Source: Mollicutes bacterium (GTDB lineage Bacteria > Bacillota_I > Bacilli_A > RF39 > UBA660). Taken from it: a DNA stretch of 64,000 nt. The stretch is taken from assembly GCA_012520435.1 (NCBI GenBank), contig JAAYOI010000007.1:964-64963 (forward strand). The letters are read 5' to 3'. The notes under the pieces were generated by a model. The model was not told the DNA's origin. It saw nothing but the letters and a program-made list of their open reading frames with translations, and did not search any database. Positions 36,497-46,905 of this stretch are shown in pieces; position 1 is the first letter of the stretch, and the number at the start of each line of letters is the position of its first letter. The position numbers were made by a program, and so were the translations under genes.

Positions 36497-38215
36497 GTGA
36501 TATTAATGAGAAAGAATATATTTAATAAAATAGTGATTTTAGGTATTTTGATATTTCTTTTTGGTTTATATTTATTACTAAGCGAAAATTTTAATATTGA
36601 AAATTTTGATCAAACAATTGGTAGTAAACAATTTAATGTTCTAAAATGGTCAAAAAGTATAGGAACAAGTAAATATAAAGTTATTATTAAAAATAATAAT
36701 AAAATTATAAAAGAAATAATAACTCCTAATCATGAACTTATTCTTGATGATTTAAATCTTACTTCTAATTCTTTTACGGTTGATGTTATTGCCTATCACA
36801 AACTAAAAAGACAAGTTAAACGTTCTAAAACTTTTAATTGGAATTTACCACTCATTCAACTTAATAAAGAGGAAATACCGGTATTAAGTAAAAGCGATAT
36901 TACCGATGTTACAATTAATTTAATAAATAATGCTAATCAAGATAATTATATAATTGTTTCAAAAGAAGGGAAGGATTTAAAACATTTAAATATTGAAGAA
37001 AATAAAATAAGTGCCTCATTTTTTAAAGATTTAGATGATTATTTAGGAACTTATGAAATTATGTTATGTCAAGATTATAATGATAAAAAAATAATCTTAC
37101 ATAAAACATATCTTAATATCATACCTAAACCCATTACTGATATTGTTATCAATCAACCATTAAATAATAGTGAAGTTTCTTTAGATGATTTAATTATTAA
37201 TTTTAGTGGTGGAAAATATGCTGATAAATATTATTATAGTTTACAGGATCAAGATGGAAAAATAATAATTGATAAAGCTTTAATTGATTCTCAACAATTT
37301 ATAATTTCTAAAGATTATTTAAATCCAGAAGAAAAGTATACTTTAATTATTACAGGTCAACATTTTTTAGATAATAATGTAACCAAATCTGTTAAACTAA
37401 ATTTTAAAGTAGCGCCTCTTAATAAAGTTAGTCAAATTATTAGTACTAAACCAAGTGGGGAAATTGGTAAAAATAGAGCAGTTAGACTTTTAACTTATAC
37501 AAATGATGCCCAAATTTATTATACCCTTGATGGAAGTATACCAACTAAAAATAGTATTGAATATAAGGGATCAATTTTTATTGATCGAGATGTAACATTA
37601 AAAGCGATTGCAGTAAAAGAAGGTATGATTGATAGTGATATTTTAGAACTCCAATTTAAAGCAGTTGAAAAAGAACCAGTTATATATTTAAGTCCTTCCA
37701 TTCAAAATGAAAATTATGGTGTAAAAAAGGCTGGATATACAACCGAAAGAGAAATGATGAACAAAATAAGTGATTATATTGAAGAACGTTTAAAACAAAA
37801 AAAGATAATTGTTTATCGCAATCATCCTGATATGACTTTGTCAGAGATTGTCAATGAATCGTCAAAATATGATGTAGATTTACACCTGGCTATTCATTCT
37901 AATAAATTTAATGGTAAGGTTTCAGGTGTAGAAACTTGGATTCATGAATATGAAGTAGGCAAAGCTTATGAAATTGCTAGTTTGATTCAAAAGGCATTAA
38001 TGCAAATTTATTATAATCCAAAAGGAAATCGTGGTATTAAATATAATAATGAAATAGATGAAATGCGTGAGACAAGTCCTAAGAATGTTACGAATGGAGT
38101 ATTAGTAGAAATCGCTTTTCATGATCATTATAAAGATGCCAAATGGATAGTTGATAATCAAAAGAAAATAGGTTATGCGATTGCTGATGCGGTAGCAAGT
38201 TATTTTGGGAGATAG
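36497..38215 (+). CDS. membrane-anchored cell-wall hydrolase: Fn3-associated/chitobiase-C-like domain plus Amidase_3-like (MurNAc-L-Ala amidase) C-terminal domain
   Basis: N-terminal TM segment. AQIYYTLDGSIPTKNSIEYKGSIFIDRDVTLKAIAVKEG is a typical Fn3-associated motif. The C-terminal region (DVDLHLAIHSNKFNGKVSGVETWIH, preceded by IYLSPSIQNEN in place of the usual xDxGHGG) resembles the Amidase_3 family with an atypical first motif. Confidence 0.45.
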   Translation: MILMRKNIFNKIVILGILIFLFGLYLLLSENFNIENFDQTIGSKQFNVLKWSKSIGTSKYKVIIKNNNKIIKEIITPNHELILDDLNLTSNSFTVDVIAYHKLKRQVKRSKTFNWNLPLIQLNKEEIPVLSKSDITDVTINLINNANQDNYIIVSKEGKDLKHLNIEENKISASFFKDLDDYLGTYEIMLCQDYNDKKIILHKTYLNIIPKPITDIVINQPLNNSEVSLDDLIINFSGGKYADKYYYSLQDQDGKIIIDKALIDSQQFIISKDYLNPEEKYTLIITGQHFLDNNVTKSVKLNFKVAPLNKVSQIISTKPSGEIGKNRAVRLLTYTNDAQIYYTLDGSIPTKNSIEYKGSIFIDRDVTLKAIAVKEGMIDSDILELQFKAVEKEPVIYLSPSIQNENYGVKKAGYTTEREMMNKISDYIEERLKQKKIIVYRNHPDMTLSEIVNESSKYDVDLHLAIHSNKFNGKVSGVETWIHEYEVGKAYEIASLIQKALMQIYYNPKGNRGIKYNNEIDEMRETSPKNVTNGVLVEIAFHDHYKDAKWIVDNQKKIGYAIADAVASYFGR

Positions 38216-38296
38216 ACTATAGAAAATATAGTCTATTTTTATATATAGTACTTGACAATACAAGATAGCTGGTATAAAATGTATCTGAGGTGATGT

Positions 38297-38620
38297 ATGA
38301 ACACACAATTTAAGAAAGGGGTATTAGAATTAATTGTTTTGGTATCCGTTTATAAAAAAGATATGTATGGATACGAATTAATAGAAGAAGTATCTAAAGT
38401 AGTTGATGTTAATGATGGAACTATATATCCCTTGTTAAAAAGATTAACCTTAGAAAAATATTTTGAAACATATTTAGTTGAATCAAATGAAGGACCATCA
38501 CGCAAATATTATCGTATTACAGATTTAGGTAAGAAAAGAATGAAAGAATTAATGGATATATGGGTCTCTTTCGCAAGTTCTGTTAATAAATTTATAGAGG
38601 AGAGTGAAAAAAGTGAATAA
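38297..38620 (+). CDS. PadR-family transcriptional regulator
   Basis: LELIVLVSVYKKDMYGYELIEEVSK...GTIYPLLKRLTLEKYFETY...SRKYYRITDLGKKRMKEL shows the classic PadR winged helix. Confidence 0.82.
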   Translation: MNTQFKKGVLELIVLVSVYKKDMYGYELIEEVSKVVDVNDGTIYPLLKRLTLEKYFETYLVESNEGPSRKYYRITDLGKKRMKELMDIWVSFASSVNKFIEESEKSE

Positions 38621-39968
38621 GAAAAAATTTTTAGAAGAATTAGAAAAACGTTTAATTATTTTAGATGAAACGGAAAAACAAGATATATTAAATGAATATA
38701 AAGATATAATTAATGAAAAAGTAAAGCATGGGAAAACCGAAGAAGAAGCAATTGCTGATTTTGGAAGTATTGATGAATTAGTAAAAGAAATTCTTGGTGC
38801 ATATAAAATTAATCCAGATTATCTTAAAAATAAACAAACAAATTCAGAAAAAGCTAAAGAAATTATCAATAATAGTGAAGATTTAATTAAAACAGGAGCT
38901 AAAAAATTAGCTGATTTTACACGTAATATTATTAATGATATAAAACAATCAGATATTACTGTTGAAACAATTTTTGAAATAATTATTAAAGCAGTTTTGT
39001 TATTATTTGGCTTTGTGATATTAAGAATACCTTTTTGGATTATTGAAGGTTTAGGGTTGGAAATTTTGGATATGATTTTTTATCCATTTGATAAAATACT
39101 AGTTTTTATTTGGTCAGTAATTATAGGTGTGCTTTATCTTACAACATGTATTATTATTGCCTTCTTAGTTTTTAAAAGATATTTTTATTCTAATTCTAAA
39201 CCAAAAGATAATATTTCTGAAATAAAGAAAGAAAAGATAAATATAAAAGACCAAGTTGAAAAAAAACAAAATAAAAATAATAATAATTCAACTATTATGA
39301 TTATTCTTAAAGTAATTTTAGTTTGCTTTTTTCTCATTCCTTTATTTTTATCTAATTTTGGATTAACTATTGCTTTAGTAGTTTTAGGATTCTTATTATA
39401 TAAAGGGTTAAATGTTATTAGTTTAATAATTGTTTTACTTGGTTTAATTACTATTTTTGGATGTATAGGTTCATTTATTAATAATATTTTACGCAATCGT
39501 ATAAAATTTAATTTTATTTCTTTAATAATTGGTATTGCTTTATTTGTAACAGGTTGTTTATTAGTGGTTGATAGTGCTATTAAGATTGATTATTATAATG
39601 ATATACCACATTATTCTTATGTACCTAAAACCATTGTTTATAATGAAGAAATTGATGAAAAAACTTATATTTATGGTAATGATGAAATTGAAATAGTTAT
39701 TGATAATACATTAGAAGATGGCAAAATAGATATTGAGGTTACTTATTATGATGATTTTATTGCCATAAATAAAAGAAATCACACTGAGAAAAGAAATGAT
39801 GATATTTATATTACTACGAGATTACGTAATAATAGTATAGGAAAATTATTAGATATTATGGTTGCTAAATTAAAAGAAAATAAAATTTATAATTATGGTT
39901 ATTTCTTTAAACCAGAAATTAGAGTGTTTGCTAATGAAAAGACTATTAATTTGATTAAAGAGGGGTAG
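38604..39968 (+). CDS. DUF1700 (PadR-associated) membrane protein with C-terminal extracytoplasmic domain
   Basis: The N-terminus FLEELEKRLIILDETEKQDILNEYKDIINEKVKHGKTEEEAIADFGSIDELVKEILGAY fits DUF1700. Several TM helices. Overlaps the PadR stop and is translationally coupled. Confidence 0.6.
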   Translation: MKKVNKKKFLEELEKRLIILDETEKQDILNEYKDIINEKVKHGKTEEEAIADFGSIDELVKEILGAYKINPDYLKNKQTNSEKAKEIINNSEDLIKTGAKKLADFTRNIINDIKQSDITVETIFEIIIKAVLLLFGFVILRIPFWIIEGLGLEILDMIFYPFDKILVFIWSVIIGVLYLTTCIIIAFLVFKRYFYSNSKPKDNISEIKKEKINIKDQVEKKQNKNNNNSTIMIILKVILVCFFLIPLFLSNFGLTIALVVLGFLLYKGLNVISLIIVLLGLITIFGCIGSFINNILRNRIKFNFISLIIGIALFVTGCLLVVDSAIKIDYYNDIPHYSYVPKTIVYNEEIDEKTYIYGNDEIEIVIDNTLEDGKIDIEVTYYDDFIAINKRNHTEKRNDDIYITTRLRNNSIGKLLDIMVAKLKENKIYNYGYFFKPEIRVFANEKTINLIKEG

Positions 39969-40045
39969 AATAAATACCCCTCTTTTTATTAATTATCTAG
40001 TTTTCAAAAATAATAATTAATGATATAATTGAAAAGAATAGTAGT

Positions 40046-41662
40046 ATGGTGATGGAAATGAAAAGAACTATTGCAGAATTTAAAAAATATTTTAAAATTG
40101 CGCCCCAAGAATATACTTTTAAAATTATTATTTCTATAATCTTAAGAGCACTTTTACTTTTAATACCAGTTTTATTTAGTAATGTTATTAATGAAGTTAC
40201 TAAATCTAATTATAATAAAGCTATTATGTTAATAATTATTTCGATTATTGTAACAGTATTATATCGTTTCTCAGAATGTTTAAATAATTATTTATATCAC
40301 AAATTATATAACAAAATATATCAATATAACTATGACCAAATTGTTAGTGTTACTAATAACAATTCTATTTTTAGTTTATCAAGATTTACGATGGGTGAAT
40401 ATAGTAATATAGCTATTAATGATGTAGCTGTTATTTCAACTTTTTATACTAATATTATAATGCGTACTGTTCAATTTTTAGAATTTATATTTATATATTC
40501 TTATTTTTTAAATATAAATAAATTTTTATTTTTATTTGTTTTAATCTTTAGTGTTTTAATCTTTATTATAAGTTTTAAAACAACTCAAAAATTACAAAAT
40601 TTAAATAATCGTGTTAAATTATATTTAGATCAAGTAACATCATCTACTAATGAATATTTTTTAGGAATAAAAGAAATTAAAAGTTTTAATCTTTTTGAAA
40701 AAATATTTCAAAGTTTAAAAAATAAAATAAATAATTATTTGGGAGCTAATAAAAAATATAATAATAATTCAATTTATTTAAATCAAAGTTATTTATTTAT
40801 GTGGGAAACGGTTCGTTTATTATCAGTTATTTATGGAATATATCTTTTAAAAGATAATGTTATTGAAGTAGGAGTCTTACTTATTATATATAATTATTAT
40901 CAAAAAATAATTGATAATTTTTCAATGGTTCTTACTGTTAATTTAGATTATCGTATTTTAAATGTATCTTTAGATCGTGTTAAGAAAATTTTTGAATATA
41001 GCAAAACAAAAGTAGGAAAAGAACAAATGCCTACGGTTAATGGTGAAATAACATTTAAAAACATTTTATATGGATATCGAAATAATCCTATCTTAAATAA
41101 AGTATCATTTTATATACCAGCTAATTCTATTAATGTTTTATATAGTAAACAAAGTTGTAAGAAAAAAGGTGTTTTTGAATTATTATTAAAACTTAATAGA
41201 CAACATGAAGGAAAAATTAAAATTGATAATATAGATATTAATGATATTGGTGATAATGATTATTTTAAGATGTTATCAATTACGAGAGAAGATCCTTTCT
41301 TCTTTAATATGAGTATTAAAGAAAATTTATTATTAGTTAATAATGATTTTGATAAAATAGTTGATATATGTAATAAAATAGGTCTTGATTATTATTTAAG
41401 CTTTTTAGATAAAGGATATGATACTAAATTAGATAATCCCAATATTAATTCTAATGTTAAGCAATTATTATCGATTGCTAGAATATTAATTAAAGATAGT
41501 AAGATTATGTTATTTGATGAAAGTATTGATATCTTAGAAGTTAAATCAAGAAAAAAAATATTAAAAATTTTAAAAGAATTATCTAAAGATCATACCATTA
41601 TTATTTCTACTCATGATGAAGATGTTATTGATATAGCTGATAATATTATTAATTTAGATTAA
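40046..41662 (+). CDS. ABC exporter-like fused permease/NBD protein with degenerate ATPase motifs
   Basis: Six-TM type I exporter domain, then an NBD-like domain. Walker A is degenerate (LYSKQSCKKKGVF versus GxxGxGKST). The Q-loop reads ITREDP. The signature motif is degenerate (NSNVKQLLSIAR versus LSGGQ). Walker B is IMLFDES. The H-loop His is retained (ISTHDED). Confidence 0.6.
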   Translation: MVMEMKRTIAEFKKYFKIAPQEYTFKIIISIILRALLLLIPVLFSNVINEVTKSNYNKAIMLIIISIIVTVLYRFSECLNNYLYHKLYNKIYQYNYDQIVSVTNNNSIFSLSRFTMGEYSNIAINDVAVISTFYTNIIMRTVQFLEFIFIYSYFLNINKFLFLFVLIFSVLIFIISFKTTQKLQNLNNRVKLYLDQVTSSTNEYFLGIKEIKSFNLFEKIFQSLKNKINNYLGANKKYNNNSIYLNQSYLFMWETVRLLSVIYGIYLLKDNVIEVGVLLIIYNYYQKIIDNFSMVLTVNLDYRILNVSLDRVKKIFEYSKTKVGKEQMPTVNGEITFKNILYGYRNNPILNKVSFYIPANSINVLYSKQSCKKKGVFELLLKLNRQHEGKIKIDNIDINDIGDNDYFKMLSITREDPFFFNMSIKENLLLVNNDFDKIVDICNKIGLDYYLSFLDKGYDTKLDNPNINSNVKQLLSIARILIKDSKIMLFDESIDILEVKSRKKILKILKELSKDHTIIISTHDEDVIDIADNIINLD

Positions 41663-41740
41663 ATGCATTTAATGCATTTTTTTTATTTTCTAAAAGGAAT
41701 ATATTAAGAGGGATAATATGTTATTGATAGGAGGTGAAAG

Positions 41741-43291
41741 ATGAAAAAATATTATCTTTTTTTATTTTTGTTTTTCTTTTTAATTAGTAATGTTAAAGCA
41801 GAAACTTATTATTCTCCATATACCGATTTTAGTGAATGGACTACTACTTATGTAAAAGAAGATGATATTACGATTGTTGAAGGTGAAAGAAGATATAAAT
41901 GGTATAAAGAAGGAAAAATATTAGGAGATTATTATATTGAAGGAGAAAATAATCCTAATTTTCCTTTAATTGATTATGAAGATTTTATTGTAACTTCTTT
42001 TTCAGAATGGAGTAAGACAAAACCAGAAGAAAAGTTAAATCGGCTTATTAATGAAAGAACATTATACGAATATCAAGATATGAAAGAAGTTCGTTATATT
42101 CATTTAAGTAATTTACAAGGTAGTTATGGATCATTGCGAATAAGTGAAATTGAGGTATATGTTGATAATAATAAAATATCTTATAGTTATTATTGTGAAG
42201 GATGTAATTCTGATTTTAAAGATCATATTAACAATGGTAAAACGATTGAAAATATGTCTTATATTAATAATAATGGTTATCTTCGAATTGATTTAAATAA
42301 TTATTATTCAATTGATCGTATTAATCTTAAGTTATATCTTTTTGATGTGGGAACTACTACCAAAAAATATGATATTAAAATTACTAGAGAAAAAAATTTA
42401 AATAGTACTAGTTATTTAGAAAAGAAAGTTTCACTTAATTTTTCTTGTGAAAAATTAAGTGAGATAATTCCTTTTACTTATAATTATTTAAATATGAATA
42501 TTACTAATCTTGAATGGTATGAGAAAAAAGAATCTTTAGATTATATTGAATCAACACCCACAAGAAAAGTTAATCCAATAAAAGAATATCAATATCAAGA
42601 TAAATTATATCGTTATTATAAATTAGAAAAAGAATATTCTAATGATTATTATAAAGAAGAACCTGTTAATTATCCTAAAAAAGATGAAAATATGTATCAA
42701 GATTATTATCGTTATAAAAAACGTGATAAAGTTGTTATTCAAGATGAACTATTAATTACTGATTATGATATTACTTTATGGGATTTTATTATTAGTAGTA
42801 CAACTAATAATATTCAAATAGAAAGTAATCTTGATATTAATAAAAATGGTGTTTATAAAGTTAAATATATTTTACCTTTTGAAACTATTATTAAGAATGT
42901 TGAAGTTAATATTCCTGATAATAATTTAGATAATCAATTAGATAAATTAAATCAAGAAATAAAAAACTTAAAAGAAGATAATTTAAATCTTTTAGAAACT
43001 ATTAAAATAAAGGATCAAAAAATAAAAGAATTAGAAAATAATAATCAAGTAAATAAGCAAACAAATAAAAAAAATAAAACATCTTTACAAGAATATCAAG
43101 ATAAAACAAATAATCAAAATAATAAATTAGAAGAAATATTAAATAAGAATCAGTTATTAGAGAATGATAATATGAAATTAAGTACTAAAAAATCATCATT
43201 TATTGATAATGATATGGTATTAACTAGTTTATTTATTTTTTTAATTTGTTATTTAATCATTTTAATAATTAAGAAAAAAAAGTCGATTTAA
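41741..43291 (+). CDS. secreted Tyr-rich surface protein with C-terminal coiled coil and TM anchor
   Basis: Signal peptide (LISNVKA/ETYY). Tyr-rich globular region. An N/K/Q-rich coiled coil (about 410-480). C-terminal hydrophobic anchor followed by KKKKS. Confidence 0.45.
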   Translation: MKKYYLFLFLFFFLISNVKAETYYSPYTDFSEWTTTYVKEDDITIVEGERRYKWYKEGKILGDYYIEGENNPNFPLIDYEDFIVTSFSEWSKTKPEEKLNRLINERTLYEYQDMKEVRYIHLSNLQGSYGSLRISEIEVYVDNNKISYSYYCEGCNSDFKDHINNGKTIENMSYINNNGYLRIDLNNYYSIDRINLKLYLFDVGTTTKKYDIKITREKNLNSTSYLEKKVSLNFSCEKLSEIIPFTYNYLNMNITNLEWYEKKESLDYIESTPTRKVNPIKEYQYQDKLYRYYKLEKEYSNDYYKEEPVNYPKKDENMYQDYYRYKKRDKVVIQDELLITDYDITLWDFIISSTTNNIQIESNLDINKNGVYKVKYILPFETIIKNVEVNIPDNNLDNQLDKLNQEIKNLKEDNLNLLETIKIKDQKIKELENNNQVNKQTNKKNKTSLQEYQDKTNNQNNKLEEILNKNQLLENDNMKLSTKKSSFIDNDMVLTSLFIFLICYLIILIIKKKKSI

Positions 43292-43366
43292 AATAAATTC
43301 TATTTTTGTCGGATTGGTATAAAAAAGAGAATAGGTGTGCTAAATTATTAAGGAAGAGGTGATTAA

Positions 43367-43714
43367 ATGTTAGAAATTACAACTGAGTTTCGTAAAGGTG
43401 TTTTGTTTGTTCGTTTAAGTGGTGAACTCACCAAACAAACAGTAGATAAATTAAATAAAGAAGTAACATCTTTAATTAAAGATAATGGGATTAGAAATAT
43501 TGTTTTTAATATCAAAGATTTAAATATGATTGATATTAAAGGTATTAATGCTTTACTTTATAATTATGAATTATCTAAAGCTAATAATGGTAAAGTATGT
43601 GTTTGTGGAATTAAAAATCCACTAGTAAGTCAACGTATTAGAAATAGTCGATTATTAAAATATATGTATGAATCTAGTGATGAGTTAGGGGCTTTTAATA
43701 TCATTAATTTATAA
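43367..43714 (+). CDS. spoIIAA: STAS-domain anti-sigma-factor antagonist (SpoIIAA-like) lacking the phosphorylatable serine
   Basis: 115 aa. Aligns to B. subtilis SpoIIAA (LCIRLTGEL / IRHIVLNLEDLSFMDSSGLG versus LFVRLSGEL / IRNIVFNIKDLNMIDIKGIN). The Ser58 position is Lys here. Confidence 0.65.
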   Translation: MLEITTEFRKGVLFVRLSGELTKQTVDKLNKEVTSLIKDNGIRNIVFNIKDLNMIDIKGINALLYNYELSKANNGKVCVCGIKNPLVSQRIRNSRLLKYMYESSDELGAFNIINL

Positions 43715-43723
43715 GGTGATAAT

Positions 43724-44392
43724 ATGGTACAAGAACTTAATGATATTATTTTAGAAAACCAAAATTTAATTTATTCTTTAACGCATTATTTTGAAGGATA
43801 TCATAGTAAAGAAGATTTATTTCAAGTAGGAGTAATTGGGCTTATTAAAGCCTATAAAAAATATAATAATCATATGGATGTTAAATTTACTACTTATGCT
43901 TATCCTTTTATTTTAGGAGAAATGCGTAAATATGTAAGAGAAGATAAAGGTATTAAAATAAGTCGTGATATTATTAAACTTAATTTAAAAATCGAAAAAG
44001 CTAGTATTCTTTTATCACAAAAATTGATGCGTGAACCAACGATTAAAGAACTTGCCCATTATCTTGAAATTCCTGAAGAATCAATTGTTGAAGCTAAAAA
44101 AACAATTAATGTTTTACAAAGTTTAGATGAACCAATAAATAGTAAAGATGGTAAAGAAATGAGTTTACATGAAACAATAAGTAATATTAATAATATGGAT
44201 TTAACTAGTTTAATTCAATTAAAAGATGAACTTAATAATTTAACACCTTTTGAAAAAAGTCTTATTCAAGCTAGATATATAAATGATTTAACGCAACAAG
44301 AAACAGCTGAATTTTTAGGTATAAGTCAAGTCCAAGTATCAAGAAAAGAACAAAAAGTAATAACTAAACTTCGAAACAAACTATTGAATTAG
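43724..44392 (+). CDS. sigF: sporulation sigma factor of the SigF/SigG/SigB group (SigF by context)
   Basis: DLFQVGVIGLIKAYKKY, YAYPFILGEMRKYVRED and LGISQVQVSRKEQK match SigF regions 2 and 4 (DLFQIGCIGLLKSVDKF; LGISQVQVSRLEKK). Located 10 nt after spoIIAA and followed by spoVA genes, as in the B. subtilis spoIIA-spoVA neighbourhood. Confidence 0.7.
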   Translation: MVQELNDIILENQNLIYSLTHYFEGYHSKEDLFQVGVIGLIKAYKKYNNHMDVKFTTYAYPFILGEMRKYVREDKGIKISRDIIKLNLKIEKASILLSQKLMREPTIKELAHYLEIPEESIVEAKKTINVLQSLDEPINSKDGKEMSLHETISNINNMDLTSLIQLKDELNNLTPFEKSLIQARYINDLTQQETAEFLGISQVQVSRKEQKVITKLRNKLLN

Positions 44393-44451
44393 TTTGTTTT
44401 TTGTATATATTGTAAAAACTTTTTCATAATAAAATTAGGAGGAAATAAAGA

Positions 44452-44892
44452 ATGGAAAAGAATCGTTATAAAGATTTAGTTAATAAACATACACCTAAAG
44501 AAAATCGTTTATATAATATCATGGTAGCTTTTATAACAGGTGGTTTAATGGGATTATTAGGTGAATTTTTAATTCAAGTATATTCTTATTTTTTGAATAT
44601 TCCATCTAAAGAAGCATCAACCTTTATGATTATTACTTTAGTTTTATTTGGTACATTATTTACTAGTTTAGGTTTTTTTGATAAATGGGTTAATTTTGCG
44701 AAATCTGGATTAATTATTCCGATTACTGGTTTCGCCCATGCGATGATGAGTGCGAGTTTAGAATATAGAAAAGAAGGATTAGTTACAGGTATAGGTACTA
44801 ATATGTTTAAATTAGCTGGTAGTGTTATTATTTTTGGTACTGTTAGTGCTTATCTTGTAGGTTTAATAAGATTAATACTATTTGGAGGTTAG
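44452..44892 (+). CDS. spoVAC: stage V sporulation protein AC
   Basis: 146-aa four-TM protein. ITGGLMGLLGEF...GFAHAMMSASLEYRKEGLVTGIGTNMFKLAGSVI is typical SpoVAC. Confidence 0.85.
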   Translation: MEKNRYKDLVNKHTPKENRLYNIMVAFITGGLMGLLGEFLIQVYSYFLNIPSKEASTFMIITLVLFGTLFTSLGFFDKWVNFAKSGLIIPITGFAHAMMSASLEYRKEGLVTGIGTNMFKLAGSVIIFGTVSAYLVGLIRLILFGG

Positions 44893-44895
44893 AAC

Positions 44896-45885
44896 ATGAC
44901 ATTTAAATATAATAATGTATATATTAATGAAACCAGTACGGTAGTAGGACCTTATGAAAAAAAAGGACCTTTAAATAATTATTTTGATAAAAGTTATGAT
45001 GATTTATATTTTGGTACTAAAACATGGGAACAAGCAGAAATGAAATTAATCGAAGAAAGTGTTAATATTTTATTAAAAAAGTTAAAGAAAAATCGATTTG
45101 ATATCGATTTACATATTTCTGGTGATTTATTAAATCAAATTGTAGCTAGTAATTATGCAGCTGCACGTTTAGGAATACCTTTTTTAGGCGTTTATAGTGC
45201 GTGTGCTAGTAGTGTTGAAGGATTGATATTAGGTGCCAATATGATTGAAGCAGACCAAATAAAAAATTGTATATGTAGTGCATCTTCCCATAATAATGCG
45301 GCTGAAAAACAATTTCGTAATCCGGTTGAATATGGTGGACCAAAACCAAAAACAGCTACTTTTACAACTACTGGTGGTGCAAGTGCCTATTTATCTTCTA
45401 ATAAAAAAGGAATAAAAATTGAAAGTAGTACGATTGGTACGGTTCAAGATTTAGGGATTACCGATGCTTTTCATATGGGAGCAATTATGGCTCCAGCAGC
45501 TGGTGATACAATCTATCAACATTTAAATGATTTAAAAAGAGAAATCGATTATTATGATTTAATTTTAACTGGTGATTTAGGTGTTTATGGTAAAAAAATA
45601 TTAGTTGATTATATGCAAACAGAATATGGAATTGAACTTAAAAATTATGATGATACAGCAACCATAATTTATGATTTAGATGAGCAACCAGTTTATGCAG
45701 GAGGAAGTGGATGTGCTTGTGCACCACTTGTTACTTATGGTTATATTTTTAGGAAAATGCATAAAAATGAATATCGCCGAATTTTATTAGTAGCAACCGG
45801 TGCCTTACTTTCTACTACCATGGTTAATCAAAAACTTTCCATTCCTTCAATTGCTCATGCTATTAGTTTGGAGGTTATAGAATGA
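44896..45885 (+). CDS. spoVAD: stage V sporulation protein AD
   Basis: 329 aa, thiolase/FabH-like fold. Family-typical N-terminus (YNNVYINETSTVVGPYEKKGPL...YDDLYFGTKTWEQAE) and active-site region (GVYSACASS). Confidence 0.85.
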   Translation: MTFKYNNVYINETSTVVGPYEKKGPLNNYFDKSYDDLYFGTKTWEQAEMKLIEESVNILLKKLKKNRFDIDLHISGDLLNQIVASNYAAARLGIPFLGVYSACASSVEGLILGANMIEADQIKNCICSASSHNNAAEKQFRNPVEYGGPKPKTATFTTTGGASAYLSSNKKGIKIESSTIGTVQDLGITDAFHMGAIMAPAAGDTIYQHLNDLKREIDYYDLILTGDLGVYGKKILVDYMQTEYGIELKNYDDTATIIYDLDEQPVYAGGSGCACAPLVTYGYIFRKMHKNEYRRILLVATGALLSTTMVNQKLSIPSIAHAISLEVIE

Positions 45886-46232
45886 ATTACGTAAATGCTT
45901 TTCTTTTTTGTGGCTTAGTATGCGTTATTGCCCAAATCATTCTTGATAATACAAAACTTACACCTGGTCATGTAACAACCATTTTTGTAGTCGTAGGAAC
46001 CTTCTTAGATGTATTTAATTTTTATGATAAATTTGTTCTTTGGGCTGGTGGTGGAGCCTTAGTTCCCATTACTAGTTTTGGTCATTTATTAATTCATGGT
46101 GCTTTAGCCAAGGCTGCCAATTTTGGTGTAATGGGATTAAGTTTAGGAATGTTTGATTTAGTTTCATCCGGTGTTATAGCTGCCATTTTCTTTTCTTTCC
46201 TTTTTTCACTTGCCTTTAAACCAAGAGATTAG
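45882..46232 (+). CDS. spoVAEB: stage V sporulation protein AEb
   Basis: 116-aa membrane protein. LTPGHVTTIFVVVGTFLD...GGGALVPITSFGHLL...GVMGLSLGMFDL is typical SpoVAEb. Overlaps spoVAD by 4 nt. Confidence 0.8.
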   Translation: MNYVNAFLFCGLVCVIAQIILDNTKLTPGHVTTIFVVVGTFLDVFNFYDKFVLWAGGGALVPITSFGHLLIHGALAKAANFGVMGLSLGMFDLVSSGVIAAIFFSFLFSLAFKPRD

Positions 46233-46252: not shown

Positions 46253-46905
46253 TTAGTTTTTATGACGTACAGTTGTATATATTAATCGATGATCCGAAAT
46301 TTCTTTTGTTTCGTTAGGATTTAATATACCAAATGATTCAATATCCCAATTATGAGGAACAAAAATATGATCTAGTGTTTTTTCTTCACCCTTTTTTGAA
46401 ATCCATGTTGCTTGATTAATTGGAATTCTTTGCATTTCACATTGATCTTTTAATAAATAATCAAGGTGAGTATTAATCATACAGATATGATTGAATTTTT
46501 TATTTTTTACTATTACAGCTGTAGCTATTCTAGGCATTAGTGCAGCTTTATAGATAGTTTTAATCAATAATTTAGGATTAGAAGGAATCCACGGTAATTT
46601 ATGAGTATTTGAATAAATTACTTCTTGATCGGTTATAATGGCATTGTTTTCATTGTAAGGAAATTTAGTTAAAAATTTATTTCCATAGCGATAATTTTCA
46701 TAAAAGCCATAGTTAGGTAAATGCATCATCATATTATTAGTAAGTTTTTTAGTTATTCTTGTGTTCCCCAAAAATCGAATTCATATTTTTGAATTAAAGT
46801 AGCTATTTTTATCGCTTGAACTATATAATTATTGCGATTTGTACTATTATTTTTGATATTAAAAGAACCAATAAATAAATTTTCCATATTACTTCCTTAT
46901 AAAAT
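46253..46905 (-). pseudogene. endonuclease/exonuclease/phosphatase (EEP)-family gene split by a 1-nt frameshift
   Basis: N-terminal fragment (revcomp 46905-46774): MENLFIGSFNIKNNSTNRNNYIVQAIKIATLIQKYEFDFWGTQE, ending at TAA. It continues in the -1 frame as the track ORF 46253-46771 (LGNTRITKK...GNAIIT...LDHIFVPHNWD...SDHRLIYTTV) with EEP hallmark motifs. The break lies in the A-rich sequence GAATAACTAAAAAA. Confidence 0.55.

Follow-up and report, generated by a model that had tools for sequence, protein, structure and literature searches.

The 64,000-nucleotide stretch analysed here, referred to below as the window (positions 964 to 64,963 of contig JAAYOI010000007.1 in assembly GCA_012520435.1, labelled Mollicutes bacterium), encodes a fused transmembrane domain–nucleotide-binding domain (TMD–NBD) protein of the ATP-binding cassette (ABC) exporter fold, in which several of the residues that build an ATP site are eroded. 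This protein is probably a selected, hydrolysis-incompetent ABC-fold membrane protein of a lineage-restricted family, which would work as a stand-alone homodimer without ATP.

The open reading frame (ORF) on the forward strand encodes 538 amino acids, and a 100% identical database copy (P0001) is 534 amino acids long with the N-terminus MKRT. Because P0001 begins at MKRT, the ATG at 40058, which is preceded by GGTGATGG, is the likelier true start of a 534-residue product. Residue numbers below refer to the 538-residue frame.

40046..41662 (+): ABC exporter-fold gene; TMD at residues 1-317, NBD at residues 330-538 (Pfam, NCBIfam, PDB sequence matches, AlphaFold2 model, Foldseek)

Pfam recognizes ABC_membrane at residues 27-284 with 49 bits (cut-off 28) and ABC_tran at residues 350-493 with 33 bits (cut-off 25). 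With 68 family sequences as input, AlphaFold2 gave a model with a pLDDT of 90.3 and a pTM of 0.80. In this model, an N-terminal helix precedes six long transmembrane (TM) helices, and two short coupling helices as well as an alpha/beta NBD are also seen. The long helices span residues 20-52, 56-105, 116-157, 159-206, 217-269, and 275-317 (TM6), while the short helices at 108-112 and 208-213 lie where ABC exporters carry their coupling helices. Foldseek searches of the PDB with this model matched TM287/288, Sav1866, Atm1, MsbA, TmrAB, PCAT1, and HlyB with TM-scores of 0.84-0.90. The type IV (ABCB-like) ABC exporter fold of the window protein is secure; a preliminary description of this DNA had proposed an ABC exporter fold from its letters. 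NCBIfam gave far-sub-threshold scores only, led by type I secretion HlyB with 134.8 bits (cut-off 725.55) and followed by 121.9 and 93.3 bits against cut-offs of 500 and 523.85; these top likenesses are to exporters of proteins and peptides, such as HlyB, LssB, and bacteriocin ABC transporters.

The motif register was taken from a gap-free phmmer alignment of the NBD to a single sequence, Caenorhabditis elegans Pgp-1, and again from the alignment of ABCB1 with a profile built from 68 members of the family, which gave the same placement. The following segments were located by these alignments:

41144..41167 (+): Walker A remnant SKQSCKKK, residues 367-374, aligned without gaps to GSSGCGKS and GNSGAGKS
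41285..41296 (+): Q-loop remnant REDP, residues 414-417, with the Gln replaced by E415
41444..41458 (+): signature (C-loop) remnant INSNV, residues 467-471, in the place of LSGGQ
41504..41539 (+): Walker B IMLFDE, residues 487-492, then the altered D-loop SIDILE, residues 493-498
41606..41617 (+): H-loop STHD, residues 521-524, with H523 kept

In the Walker A consensus GxxGxGK[ST], all three Gly and the Ser/Thr are substituted and the Lys is kept. The D-loop has DILE where SALD is canonical, and the A-loop aromatic residue is kept as Y342. Walker B is intact, with D491 and the catalytic E492 aligned to ILLLDE. Among the features expected of a competent ATPase, the window protein lacks Walker A, the Q-loop Gln, and LSGGQ, and has the Walker B Asp-Glu and the H-loop His. 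The preliminary description had called Walker A, the Q-loop Gln, and the signature degenerate and the H-loop His retained, which both the single-sequence and the profile alignment confirm. It had also counted the catalytic Glu of Walker B among the losses; E492 is present in the window protein, although many relatives do carry Asp-Asp. These alignments support the conclusion that the window protein would be unable to form a canonical ATP site. With both faces of the chain off-consensus, a homodimer is predicted neither to bind nor to hydrolyse ATP canonically, as had been claimed. The same window encodes UvrA 5 kb downstream, and GVSGSGKS and LSGGE are retained in each of the two ABC modules of UvrA. 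Since UvrA stays canonical, the decay is not explained by base composition or by AT pressure on Gly codons.

The protein belongs to a small family. A protein search over 5.8 billion sequences returned 705 matches at E<1e-5, of which the best 120, the identical copy P0001 aside, are 510-586 amino acids long and share 44-62% identity. Among the GTDB species representatives, a scan found 58 loci, and family members were present in 57 of the 58 genomes, the remaining one holding only a canonical relative (L067). The family ORFs of the 57 species are approximately 540 amino acids long, intact save at contig ends or masked stretches, and 38-62% identical. All 58 GTDB loci come from uncultured metagenome-assembled genomes of guts, rumen, chicken, rabbit, and anaerobic digesters. 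Their labels include Bacilli, Mollicutes, Mycoplasmatota, Firmicutes CAG:884, Erysipelotrichaceae, and others, of which several (e.g., 'uncultured Muribaculaceae') look like placeholders and are unreliable. When 1.84 billion 50%-identity representatives were searched exhaustively with HMMER, approximately 25 family clusters were recovered, reaching down to approximately 31% identity and 244 bits. No family member was found outside the uncultured low-GC Firmicutes of guts and digesters. Just below its edge, P0212 (197 bits) has a canonical set of motifs (GISGSGKS, Gln, ISGGE, LLDE, and His). Another protein just outside the family, P0215 (28% identical), has canonical Walker A, Q-loop, Walker B, and His together with a degenerate signature (VIPES); this pattern is that of a signature-defective heterodimer half and may represent the ancestor type of the family.

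The state of each motif was counted over 59 distinct family NBDs from the family loci. The signature SGG is kept in 0/59 of them and in 0/121 of the database homologue set; the Q-loop Gln is kept in 3/59 and 0/121, respectively. The Walker A pattern G....GK[ST] survives in 26/59, the catalytic Glu in 38/59 (Asp in 17), and the H-loop His in 30/59 (Arg in 24). The Walker B Asp, the A-loop aromatic residue, SLSRF in the first intracellular loop (ICL1), and Y.YY.K in TM6 are each present in 59/59. The ATP-contacting residues are normally the best-conserved part of any ABC protein. In this family, Walker A has a column entropy of 2.02 bits, the signature 1.78, the D-loop 1.68, and the Q-loop 1.64 against a protein average of 1.4, and the helix after Walker A has 0.67 bits, the ICL1 motif 0.72, and the TM6 motif 0.21. 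The ATP-contacting segments are more variable than the protein average and show relaxed constraint, whereas the NBD core fold, the A-loop aromatic residue, the coupling helix SLSRF, and the TM6 segment YNYYQKIIDN show strong purifying selection. Conservation of the family despite this decay shows that it is under selection for something other than ATP turnover.

The same data bear on the notion that the gene is a decaying pseudogene or an annotation artefact, which has next to no credibility. The loss of several catalytic motifs would fit it, as would the GC content of the gene, which at 0.18 is the minimum of the region (0.18-0.22 over the ABC gene and the surface-protein gene that follows it). 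This notion is contradicted by the spread of ORFs of that length and identity over 57 species with invariant membrane-domain motifs, by the confident model of the whole chain, and by an NBD that is overall as conserved as the TMD (1.42 vs. 1.39 bits). The preliminary description had made the comparison of the motif degeneration across orthologues the touchstone of function. The degenerate state turned out to be conserved throughout the family, hence the gene is a selected one and a pseudogene is refuted.

A further explanation is that the NBD serves as a ligand sensor in the manner of CFTR or SUR, binding a nucleotide or another cytosolic ligand unhydrolysed and thereby gating a channel or receptor function of the membrane domain. 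The perfect Walker A and the Asp-Glu pair of the many relatives that keep them would suit such a role, as would the invariant A-loop aromatic residue and the strong conservation of the helix after Walker A and of the NRQHEG segment. However, no segment of the protein varies more than Walker A, which has disappeared at least three times; this is hard to square with a conserved ligand site. In addition, the window protein has none of the P-loop glycines and no Mg-coordinating Ser/Thr. The sensor function is accordingly considered rather improbable.

A neighbour-joining (NJ) tree was rooted on L067, which is 29% identical and canonical in all five motifs, and changes were counted on it by Fitch parsimony. 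Members with an intact Walker A are basal in this tree, and the signature changed once, on the stem. The minimum numbers of changes are three for Walker A, six for the catalytic Glu, and six for the H-loop His, and these event numbers are approximate because the tree was a quick one with a single outgroup. The pattern is clear in that hydrolysis was lost early and the remaining residues of the ATP site then eroded freely. The family ancestor was already without the LSGGQ signature and the Q-loop Gln, which were lost once. The erosion of Walker A, of the catalytic Glu, and of the H-loop His followed later, in some sublineages and apparently several times. The window protein lies within this family pattern, as its Walker A is gone while its Asp-Glu and His remain.

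The quaternary state of such a chain has to be judged against the exporters with known partners. TM287/288, TmrAB, BmrCD, EfrCD, LmrCD, and Rv1273c/72c share the fold of the window protein and are its best structural matches (TM-scores 0.84-0.88); these heterodimers with one degenerate site likewise tolerate non-consensus Walker B, H-loop, and signature residues. In the known heterodimers, one chain is defective in Walker B and the H-loop and the other in the signature. Systems of the TM287/288 class have their defects split over two chains encoded by adjacent genes, so that one composite site is canonical, whereas the window protein is an orphan chain, degenerate on the Walker A/Q-loop side and also on the signature/D-loop side, with no co-oriented half-transporter gene next to it. 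The defining feature of ABC exporters is NBD dimerisation driven by ATP. To our knowledge, degenerate ABC sites always stand beside one consensus site. A full-text literature search for exporters with two degenerate sites, or with both Walker A and signature lost, found only systems with a single degenerate site. Sav1866, MsbA, LmrA, BmrA, and bacterial Atm1 are, like the window protein, single-gene TMD–NBD half-transporters of approximately 540-580 amino acids with six TM helices and two coupling helices. These homodimers have fully canonical motifs and need ATP hydrolysis, unlike a family in which no signature and almost no Q-loop Gln is kept.

The preliminary description had assigned the protein to the non-catalytic half of a heterodimer. 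On this account, the chain would be a silent half, and a canonical catalytic partner encoded elsewhere would supply ATP binding and the power stroke. A degenerate ABC chain usually does have a more canonical chain as its partner. In 5/58 GTDB loci (L011, L013, L014, L018, and L022), a pair of canonical ABC exporter genes is located within 10 kb of the family gene, and only a small part of each genome was inspected for a partner. Nevertheless, since the chain is defective on both faces, any dimer containing it, homomeric or heteromeric, would be without a consensus site; the Walker A of a partner would face INSNV, and the signature of the partner would face SKQSCKKK. A phmmer search with the ABC protein found no second ABC exporter in the 64-kb window, in agreement with the earlier statement that no partner half-transporter is adjacent. 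In a survey of 62 non-redundant loci, which took in 10-kb flanks on each side in the relatives, no conserved half-transporter was found beside the family gene.

The nearby pairs are ordinary self-sufficient heterodimers. The pair in L011 (2600-6338) consists of one chain with GSTGSGKS, ISGGQ, IFDD, and SQR and another with GPTGAGKT, ISSGQ, LDEATS, and AHR, which by these motifs is a textbook heterodimer with one degenerate site, and it is separated from the family gene by a gene on the opposite strand. Each of the nearby pairs is already complete, with one degenerate site. A silent half is considered unlikely beside the preferred homodimer, and the earlier assignment to this role is not sustained. 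The five loci with a nearby heterodimeric pair include three of the closest relatives; the window has no such pair.

The neighbourhood survey gave little else in common among the loci. No neighbour family occurs in more than 13/62 loci. The cluster mrnC-rlmB-sigma-whiA was considered as a family-wide context and rejected, being present in 12/62 loci of one subclade. A conserved upstream neighbour was likewise rejected, as the HAAS and PadR proteins of the window show no similarity to the products of the gene pair that precedes the ABC gene in L001. With the loci of the closest relatives (57-62% identity), the window has the ABC gene alone in common.

Across 68 sequences, the columns without variation are concentrated in the membrane domain and where it meets the NBD. 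Two motifs stand out, each defined by invariant columns, entropy, and the helices of the model:

40361..40408 (+): motif NSxFSLSRFxxGxYxN, residues 106-121, which takes in the first short coupling helix (ICL1; model helix 108-112)
40883..40921 (+): motif IIYNYYQKIIDNF, residues 280-292, lying in the opening turns of TM6 (helix 275-317), with invariant K287 and D290

The invariant residues comprise R34, L37, L38, and P41 in TM1; E77 in TM2; T103, N106, S107, and S110-F114 around the first coupling helix; R140, E146, I150, and Y153 in TM3; K191 and D195 in TM4; R257 in TM5, where E254 is nearly invariant; and Y282, Y284, Y285, K287, I288, D290, and N291 in TM6. Just past the Walker A helix, N384, H387, and G389 are invariant as well. 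Both TMD motifs belong to the family itself and are absent from the canonical outgroup L067. According to the model, E146, R257, K287, and D290 are predicted to lie within the membrane-spanning part.

A stand-alone homodimer is the default for single-gene half-transporters, and the window protein would be expected to follow it. In such a homodimer, the NBD would have been turned into a non-catalytic structural module, and the two NBDs would clamp the coupling helices. The activity would then reside in the membrane domain, where a polar or charged ligand may be bound or translocated in a cavity of invariant ionisable residues; E146, R257, K287, D290, and the nearly invariant E254 are candidates for lining it. 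This activity would be free of ATP hydrolysis and may be facilitated transport, ion-gradient-coupled transport, scrambling, or a scaffold or receptor function. That the membrane fold of ABC exporters can work without ATP has been described for SbmA/BacA and for LmrA without its NBD, which are driven by the proton gradient and use conserved acidic residues of the cavity (PMC8442886; PMC13316013). SbmA/BacA (SLiPT) has neither NBD nor coupling helices (PMC8442886). The family resembles SbmA/BacA in its invariant ionisable residues of TM3, TM5, and TM6, and differs from it in keeping a well-folded NBD and in having the coupling helix among its best-conserved segments; a sequence relationship to SbmA was not found, though no search aimed at it was made. 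A bolder proposal is that the protein is a natural intermediate between primary and secondary transport, namely, a full-length ABC exporter turned to ATP-independent work, ion-gradient-coupled or facilitated, through the charged TM3/TM5/TM6 network with a vestigial NBD clamp. It is offered as a speculation that is more likely wrong than right. If true, it would be the missing step from pumps of the Sav1866/LmrA type to the SbmA type without NBD, caught at several stages of NBD decay in one clade.

Several points weigh against an ATP-independent homodimer. The predicted loss of ATP binding is read from motifs. The kept Lys, the Walker B Asp-Glu, H523, and Y342 would leave room for weak or non-canonical nucleotide binding, and the basal members with a perfect Walker A may still bind ATP. 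The placement of the charged residues within the membrane is predicted from helix boundaries rather than coordinates. The partner search covered 64 kb here and 10-kb flanks in the relatives, and a partner may be encoded elsewhere. In addition, the order of losses comes from a quickly built NJ tree rooted on one distant outgroup.

The immediate surroundings of the ABC gene contain three putative signals:

39957..39985 (+): intrinsic-terminator-like hairpin of 11 pairs, five of them GC, with a T-run, ending the upstream PadR-HAAS unit (scan)
40001..40029 (+): promoter-like TTTTCA-17-TATAAT extended by TG, immediately before the ABC gene (consensus match only)
41663..41690 (+): hairpin ATGCAT-TTA-ATGCAT with a T-run directly after the ABC stop, possibly a weak terminator (read from the sequence)

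The terminator-like scan found three sites where 0.3 were expected; it left the hairpin at 41663..41690 uncalled because the number of its G-C pairs is too low. No enrichment of promoter-like sites is seen in DNA as AT-rich as this. These features show the ABC gene to lie in its own terminator-bounded unit. Its cotranscription with the gene that follows is unlikely because of the terminator and promoter-like site upstream and the hairpin with T-run after the ABC gene.

The following gene encodes a surface protein whose architecture is as the preliminary description had outlined it, with a signal peptide, a Tyr-rich ectodomain, a helical stalk rich in N and K, and a TM helix at the C-terminus.

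41741..43291 (+): gene of the secreted, C-terminally anchored surface protein, 516 aa (ORF, model, synteny); signal peptide 1-20 (MKKYYLFLFLFFFLISNVKA), beta-rich Tyr-rich ectodomain at approximately 21-390, helical stalk 392-483, TM helix 487-515

The ectodomain contains 12% Tyr, and the model (pLDDT 87.1) places helices at 392-483 and the TM helix at 487-515. The protein has 64 homologues and is 100% identical to the database hypothetical protein GX247_00550. The profile searches suggested earlier for finding its family gave no match above threshold in Pfam and NCBIfam; weak sub-threshold Pfam likenesses were to galactose-binding-like domains in 4/37 members and bacterial Ig-like domains in 5/37. 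Structure searches with the surface protein were uninformative. A near-perfect inverted repeat of 14-17 bp with a 4-nt loop lies within this ORF (42428-42465) and was called terminator-like on both strands by the scan.

The ABC protein had been suggested to be the dedicated exporter or partner of this surface protein. The genes lie side by side on one strand with 78 bp between them, and the best NCBIfam likeness of the ABC protein is to exporters of proteins and peptides. Among these, HlyB, LssB, PCAT1, and the Mbov_0121 family come closest, with structural matches to HlyB (TM-score 0.90) and PCAT1 (0.86-0.88). Unlike HlyB- and PCAT-type exporters, the window protein scores far below the cut-offs and has degenerate ATP motifs. 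In the model it starts directly with the helix preceding TM1, so that an N-terminal C39 or C39-like (CLD) domain is missing, and the vicinity of the ABC gene yielded no gene for a membrane-fusion protein. The surface protein has an ordinary signal peptide, and its homologues were absent from all 68 loci fetched around ABC-family genes. Conversely, its orthologues occur in the same PadR-HAAS/spoIIAA block without an ABC gene. The orthologue P0122 (57% identical; L070 and L071) is encoded directly after the HAAS gene with no ABC gene between, and in the locus of P0124 (49% identical; L069) an RCC1/N_methyl gene fills the slot of the ABC gene. The surface-protein gene is thus fixed in the block and the ABC gene is one of several occupants of a variable slot, so their adjacency carries no functional signal. 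A cargo relationship is highly improbable on this evidence, and the suggestion falls. For the same reason, the view that both genes lie in an accessory stretch holds for the ABC gene, which is variable at this site, and fails for the surface-protein gene, a fixed member of the block running from Amidase_3, PadR, and HAAS to spoIIAA.

This conserved block covers 36497-46232 of the window and recurs in L069, L070, and L071. It comprises an Amidase_3 protein that also carries CHB_HEX_C and Fn3_assoc domains, PadR, and HAAS, and it continues after HAAS with the variable slot, the surface protein, STAS, sigma, and SpoVAC/AD/AEB. As the block was read around the surface-protein orthologues, a ClpB-like AAA gene comes ahead of Amidase_3. 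The slot holds the ABC gene in the window and the RCC1/N_methyl gene (pilin-like leader) in L069, and it is empty in L070 and L071.

The block has a SpoIIAA-like STAS gene and, 9 nt after it, the SigF-like sigma gene; a spoIIAB anti-sigma kinase gene is missing between the two (43367-44392), and the same arrangement is found in two relatives (L069, 8645-9727; L070, 7707-8735). No HATPase_c protein was found among ten small ORFs scanned elsewhere in the window. The window, with approximately 20-30% GC, encodes spoIIAA-like, sigF-like, and spoVAC/AD/AEB genes together with SepF, DivIVA, and a cell-wall amidase. From these sporulation genes and the SepF, DivIVA, and amidase genes, the source, although labelled Mollicutes, is a walled, probably spore-forming, very low-GC Firmicute. 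Past the block, a 172-aa ORF with a TTG start (46253-46771, minus strand) has no Pfam match; its C-terminus (…LDHIFVP…ISDHRLIY) looks like what we take to be the end of an endonuclease/exonuclease/phosphatase-family protein, and by this likeness the ORF is possibly a truncated remnant.

The members of the ABC family carry the database annotation 'ABC transporter ATP-binding protein', which overstates their capability. They form a conserved orphan family of single-chain exporters in which neither composite site can be canonical, and thus offer a natural experiment on the non-catalytic contribution of the NBD scaffold and on the repurposing of an ABC pump. As the clade includes members with an intact and with a fully eroded Walker A, its members lend themselves directly to biochemical comparison. 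A demonstration of ATP-independent transport by the family would give the finding high interest.

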